From NCBI RefSeq assembly GCF_003019035.1, contig NZ_CP027447.1: a stretch of DNA of 64,000 nt, one strand, 5' to 3'. A model generated the notes under the pieces. The model worked only from the letters and a program-made list of their open reading frames with translations. It ran no database searches and was not told where the DNA came from. The number at the start of each line of letters is the position of its first letter. Position 1 is the first letter of the stretch. Shown in pieces: positions 34,392 through 34,423 of the stretch. Made by a program: the position numbers and the translations under genes. Source of the DNA: Escherichia coli (lineage in GTDB: Bacteria > Pseudomonadota > Gammaproteobacteria > Enterobacterales > Enterobacteriaceae).

Positions 34392-34423
34392 TTTTGGCGA
34401 TTGAGTGCCGGACGGTGTACAAA

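Follow-up and report, generated by a model that had tools for sequence, protein, structure and literature searches.

In the K-12-type strain 5A of Escherichia coli, the RefSeq annotation places a setA gene of 1179 bp between sgrT/sgrS and leuD, in keeping with the ca. 1.2 kb given for K-12 in an earlier note made from the sequence of the stretch analysed here (64 kb in length, referred to as the window). According to the same note, setA is missing from this position in the window, where only ca. 30 bp separate the SgrS terminator from leuD. The analysis concerned how the short junction arose, how widely it is distributed, and what it leaves of the glucose-phosphate stress response.

According to the published data on K-12, setA is transcribed together with sgrS from a promoter activated by SgrR, the transcript reaching setA by reading through the SgrS terminator, and the setA start codon lies 27 bp past this terminator (PMC9765468), and an endogenous sgrS–setA read-through transcript was seen by Northern blot (PMC4509938); the two reports agree with the note in that setA is expressed by read-through from sgrS. 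Deletion of the terminator in K-12 raises setA-lacZ expression only 1.6- to 1.8-fold (PMC9765468), which indicates substantial read-through. SetA helps growth to recover in some stress situations only, its role "remains elusive", and no support was found for its exporting alpha-methylglucoside (2014 review, PMC4021124). The K-12 sgrR/sgrS–sgrT–setA locus is described here after Vanderpool and Gottesman (2004) and Sun and Vanderpool (2011), as quoted in PMC4021124, PMC4509938, and PMC9765468.

The sgrS–leuD junction of this strain

The features of the segment are collected in Table 1. Read directly from the sequence, the gap between the end of the second T-run and the stop codon of the convergent leuD (34424–34426, CTA on the + strand and TAG on the − strand) is 28 bp, or 33 bp when counted from the Rfam end of SgrS, as the note had estimated. 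A K-12-type sgrS–setA operon is lacking, the 28–33 bp from the terminator to the leuD stop holding no setA ORF, and downstream of the terminator the + strand has no coding sequence. In the alignment with K-12, homology ends just past the SgrS stem and T-run and restarts at the end of leuD, with 40 bp in the window standing against 1261 bp in K-12. A tblastn search of the whole 64-kb window with K-12 SetA, a protein of ca. 392 aa, gave no homologue at E ≤ 1e-5. The absence of setA between sgrS and leuD is thereby confirmed by the spacing, the K-12 alignment, and the empty search, the last of which also covers the adjacent regions, for which the note had allowed for a misassigned setA homologue.

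Table 1. Features of the sgrR–leuD segment (positions are those of the window)
Feature	Position	Strand	State	Basis
sgrR, transcriptional activator of sgrS	32439..34097	-	intact, 552 aa + stop	ORF list; RefSeq annotation of FDAARGOS_497, a strain with 100% identity
SgrS small RNA, CFT073/O157 type	34165..34390	+		Rfam RF00534; K-12 and O157 alignment
sgrT frame	34186..34284	+	32 codons (normal 43 aa)	translation, alignments
SgrS intrinsic terminator	34361..34395	+		terminator scan, predicted fold
Spacer, probable deletion remnant	34396..34423	none		conserved across setA-less Escherichia; Citrobacter/Salmonella upstream-of-setA comparison
leuD, 3-isopropylmalate dehydratase small subunit	34424..35029	-	intact, 201 aa, C-terminus FMR-stop	translation, tblastn, outgroup C-termini

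SgrS matches the whole Rfam model (positions 1–232 of 232), scoring 218.7 bits where the gathering score is 37 (E = 4e-62), is divergent from sgrR, and has the conserved 3' base-pairing region with an intrinsic terminator after it; its ptsG-pairing seed, CATCATGTGTGACTGAGTATTGGTG, is identical to that of K-12. LeuD is full-length, 98% identical to the K-12 protein and collinear with it and with the outgroup proteins. The terminator comprises the hairpin GCCAGCAG-TGATTAT-CTGCTGGC (34361–34383), with an 8-bp stem and a 7-nt loop, and a tail of the form TTTTTT C TTTTT (T6-C-T5, 34384–34395), and its predicted fold is slightly more stable in the window (−15.5 kcal/mol) than in K-12 (−13.2 kcal/mol). 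It is the sole terminator predicted by a consensus scan between the convergent sgrS and leuD. A bidirectional setA–leuD terminator in K-12 and a leuD terminator in the window had been expected; in the window the scan called only the SgrS terminator on the + strand and no leuD terminator on the − strand within the gap, though the same scan does not call the setA–leuD hairpin of K-12.

When positions 34340–34395 are compared with the Escherichia, Citrobacter, and Salmonella loci, two types of SgrS 3' end can be told apart by sequence, each found in more than one genus. All setA-less Escherichia and most Citrobacter have the type TTAATCGCCRC, with the loop TGATTAT, TGAATAC, or GTATTAT; setA-carrying Escherichia, Salmonella, and a few Citrobacter have the type TAAAATCACCC, with the loop ATTATAC or ATAATAC. 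The tail is T8 in the K-12 type (effectively T9, with the G-T closing pair) and T6-C-T5 in the window type. The length of the poly-U tract is reported to matter for Hfq binding, so that termination or Hfq loading might not be the same in the two alleles. In addition, AATCGCC (34352–34358), which lies upstream of the terminator stem, and GGCGATT (34396–34402), past the T-run, are complementary, and their pairing is predicted to extend the hairpin in a read-through or leuD-sense RNA (−26.2 kcal/mol); the complementarity may be due to chance, and the pairing is not conserved in Citrobacter.

The sgrT frame within SgrS is damaged. One T is lost at 34274, where other strains have TT, and the shift at codon 30 yields a product of 32 aa, MRQFYQHYFTATAKLCWLRWLSVPQRLTMLKN, instead of 43 aa, so that no intact SgrT frame of ca. 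43 aa is found within SgrS. In the identical strain FDAARGOS_497 the gene is flagged by RefSeq as frameshifted/pseudogene. Among 5378 complete E. coli genomes, no more than 57 carry the exact 61-bp sgrT haplotype; they include strains named ST648, IMT16316, MS6198, and ECONIH1, which we take to belong to the ST648 lineage of phylogroup F.

Two neighbouring features were recorded. A TPP riboswitch upstream of thiB (31300–31399, − strand; Rfam RF00059, 66.1 bits) is expected and ordinary. Between it together with thiB and sgrR lies an ORF of 189 aa (31640–32209, + strand), annotated in FDAARGOS_497 as the T3SS effector EspY2, which is found at the same site in IAI39, SMS-3-5, and 042 and is absent from K-12, CFT073, and IAI1. 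The ca. 500 bp at the 3' end of sgrR beside this ORF are unusually diverged (86–92% identity to K-12), which marks a second indel-linked haplotype.

Distribution of the junction and the ancestral state

Complete E. coli genomes, 5399 in all, were compared with a 1-kb query spanning the junction: 2159 gave a contiguous match (more than 2000 of them at 96–99% identity), and in the rest the query matched in two separated pieces. DNA of setA, sought with the K-12 gene, is present in 3241 of 5426 genomes, in 3228 of these at an identity of at least 99%. The numbers of split junctions (3240) and of genomes with setA DNA (3241) are complementary, the one extra being a partial match of 79 bp, so where the junction is compact, setA is essentially never found at a different place in the genome. 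Nothing suggests otherwise for the present strain, for which the basis is these population counts and, within the 64-kb window, direct inspection. The identity to the window in the 1-kb search is at least 95% in about 2156 genomes and 90–95% in 3243, a split parallel to that of the junction, and hence the two states of the indel are almost completely linked to two sequence types of the flanks.

The reference strains sampled, which we take to represent phylogroups A, B1, B2, D, E, and F, show to which lineages the two states belong, as the note had proposed to survey. setA is present in the K-12-type 5A and BLR(DE3) (phylogroup A) and in IAI1 (B1), and absent from CFT073 (B2), 042 (D), O157:H7 (E), and IAI39 and SMS-3-5 (both F). 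The lineage difference from K-12 pointed out earlier is therefore real but not peculiar to this strain, since ca. 40% of E. coli as well as several sister species share the identical junction.

The setA-less junction is an old, common lineage polymorphism that is already visible in the annotation and already known. The presence or absence of setA is depicted in the comparative literature on SgrS: setA is drawn for each genome having it in Figure 2 of Horler and Vanderpool (2009, PMC2760817), according to the figure legend, and the CFT073 and O157 alleles of SgrS are given there as 88% identical to K-12 SgrS. What is added here is modest, namely that the deletion allele is shared across species and that there is evidence of haplotype exchange. 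In CFT073 the junction is further modified by an IS200C element (5936–6640 of the CFT073 locus, corresponding to 34389/34390 of the window), which splits the T6 run of the terminator from the CTTTTTGGCG spacer and changes the sequence past the SgrS poly-U; the same IS junction is found in 35 of 5426 genomes.

The direction of the change was deduced from 80 loci of species-representative genomes, found with SgrR as the anchor, in each of which SetA and LeuD were then located; they comprise 76 loci of non-Escherichia Enterobacteriaceae and four of non-coli Escherichia, with E. fergusonii, E. marmotae, E. ruysiae, and the E. coli representative not among them. SetA, at 75–91% amino-acid identity, lies directly beside sgrS in every one of the 76 loci from outside Escherichia, usually with leuD just beyond; the genera covered include Citrobacter, Salmonella, Enterobacter, Klebsiella, Kluyvera, Leclercia, and Atlantibacter. 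Three of the four Escherichia loci, those of E. albertii, E. whittamii, and Escherichia sp. E1V33, have no setA, and the fourth, of Escherichia sp. MOD1-EC7003, carries one whose product is 99% identical in amino-acid sequence to K-12 SetA. The uniformity of the outgroup loci argues that the presence of setA at this site is the ancestral state in the family and that the compact junction results from a deletion. Very probably, the 28–33 bp are the junction of one old deletion of ca. 1.2 kb, carried as a single deletion allele within Escherichia.

The deletion would have taken setA together with most of the two flanking intergenic regions. Clearly homologous spacers, of the form CTTTTTGGCGATTGAG(..)CGGACGGYGTACAAA with the leuD stop directly after it, are present in the window and in O157, E. 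albertii, E. whittamii, and E1V33, which points to one deletion allele shared across species, not to recurrent loss. The first ca. 10 nt past the T6 run (CTTTTTGGC) align with the sgrS–setA intergenic sequence of Citrobacter, the ancestral intergenic part of the junction being CTTTTT and the first spacer bases GGC. For the ca. 24 nt of the spacer beside leuD, both strands of the K-12, Salmonella, and Citrobacter setA regions were compared and gave only matches of 7–13 nt of chance quality, and the right breakpoint is thus only bounded.

As regards leuD, its last codon and stop read FMN-TAA in K-12 (4747–4752 of the K-12 locus) and FMR-TAG in the window (34424–34429), and a deletion cutting into the gene was considered on this account. 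It was dropped, as the LeuD C-terminus is FMR in the other Escherichia, Salmonella, and Citrobacter as well and FMN only in K-12 and Escherichia sp. MOD1-EC7003; the K-12 form is derived. It follows that leuD was left intact by the deletion and that it is the setA-carrying haplotype of Escherichia that has the derived last codon.

Origin of the two haplotypes

The window and K-12 are 97–99% identical through most of sgrR and leuD/leuC, as against 91% in the last ca. 200 bp of sgrS and 88% in the last ca. 200 bp of leuD, the divergence beside the indel being confined to about 200–300 bp on each side. Each of the two alleles, the deletion allele of E. albertii, E. whittamii, sp. E1V33, and the E. 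coli B2/D/E/F reference strains, which probably arose once in Escherichia, and the setA-carrying allele of E. coli A and B1 strains and Escherichia sp. MOD1-EC7003, is tightly linked to its own diverged version of the last ca. 200 bp of sgrS and of leuD. K-12 and MOD1-EC7003 are 97–99% identical from the 3' half of sgrS through the end of setA and 92–95% in most of the flanks, and this peak of identity indicates a relatively recent exchange of the setA-carrying haplotype between Escherichia lineages, in either direction. K-12 setA has 73–81% DNA identity to its Salmonella and Citrobacter counterparts, similarly to the neighbouring sgrR and leuD, and the haplotype is therefore of genus-internal origin. 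The 3' 200 bp of leuD (34424–34625) constitute a local diversity hotspot beside the indel, the window having 91.5% identity there even to O157:H7 and 88–91% to everything else compared, with the rest of leuD/leuC 95–99% identical.

Whether the setA-carrying allele of A and B1 strains descended vertically is a separate matter from the deletion itself. The probability that it did not, but was regained by homologous recombination from a setA-keeping Escherichia lineage after an earlier loss of setA from the E. coli ancestor, comes close to an even chance. The occurrence of the deletion allele in E. albertii, E. whittamii, sp. E1V33, and the B2, D, E, and F reference strains places the deletion, by parsimony, before the diversification of E. 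coli; the peak of identity between K-12 and MOD1-EC7003 has the signature of a recent inter-lineage exchange, and near the junction, on the side of sgrS, setA-less alleles of other species resemble the window more closely (92–96%) than K-12 does (91%). However, E. coli could have been the donor in that exchange, a long-lived polymorphism with lineage sorting yields a similar pattern, the leuD flank does not discriminate because the window is diverged there from everything, O157 included, and the non-coli Escherichia sampled are four genomes only. With the genomes sampled, the data fit either the re-acquisition of setA by the A/B1 ancestor or a long-lived polymorphism. The fuller scenario, in which an ancient two-haplotype polymorphism extends across Escherichia, the E. 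coli ancestor was setA-less, as E. albertii and the cryptic-clade species are, and the K-12-type sgrS 3' end and setA were re-imported into A/B1 by homologous recombination, is put forward tentatively, its probability falling somewhat below even. If it is true, the textbook K-12 sgrS–setA operon is a secondarily regained state, and lineages with neither setA nor an intact sgrT, such as the present one, have base-pairing by SgrS as the sole arm of their glucose-phosphate stress response.

It is very improbable that the compact junction is the ancestral form in enteric bacteria and that the K-12 (A/B1) lineage gained setA as an insertion, acquired horizontally from beyond the genus. The absence of setA from most of the sampled Escherichia species and from all the sampled earlier-branching E. 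coli phylogroups would accord with such a transfer, and the low diversity of the gene among E. coli would suit a recent arrival, but this reading is largely refuted by the presence of setA beside sgrS in every non-Escherichia locus; moreover, K-12 setA is as far from its Salmonella and Citrobacter homologues as the flanking sgrR and leuD are, which speaks against a recent import from these genera. A recent deletion specific to this strain, or an assembly or assignment error in the window, has a practically negligible probability, as no point was found in its favour and it is refuted by the junction being 100% identical to that in the finished genome of strain FDAARGOS_497 and recurring in over 2000 complete genomes and in other species.

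Consequences and comparison with known loci

With the old single deletion as the preferred explanation, SgrR should still induce SgrS, and riboregulation should work, since sgrR is intact, the base-pairing seed unchanged, and the terminator hairpin retained in a form predicted to be slightly more stable. Read-through RNA would have lost its transporter gene and would continue, in antisense orientation, into the 3' end of leuD. [quoted passage not shown]

The three-arm model derived from K-12 (SgrS base-pairing, SgrT, and SetA by read-through) does not describe ca. 40% of E. coli, among them the extraintestinal pathogen CFT073, O157:H7, 042, IAI39, and SMS-3-5. Work on SgrS read-through presumes setA downstream, and in setA-less strains the same read-through would give a leuD-antisense RNA. 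For annotation the junction is routine, and in evolutionary terms it is a tidy case of an old indel haplotype crossing species boundaries, with no major question opened.

Compared with the known loci, the window shares with the other enteric genera, such as Salmonella, Citrobacter, and Enterobacter, the order sgrR–sgrS–…–leuD, and its SgrS terminator and the first ca. 10 nt beyond it resemble the common Citrobacter form; it differs from all these genera in that they keep setA between sgrS and leuD. With the K-12 locus it has in common sgrR divergent from sgrS, the identical SgrS seed, the GCCAGCAG/CTGCTGG terminator stem, and the convergent leuD downstream. Unlike K-12, it has no setA and so no bicistronic sgrS–setA read-through mRNA, the 3' half of its SgrS is ca. 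9% diverged with a T6-C-T5 tail in place of T8, its sgrT is frameshifted, and its LeuD ends with FMR and not FMN. The SgrS loci of CFT073 and O157:H7 share with the window both the sgrS allele type and the setA-less junction. CFT073 differs from it in the IS200C element directly past the T6 run, and O157:H7 in the way sgrT was lost, by a start-codon mutation (ATG to ATT) there and by a 1-bp deletion here.
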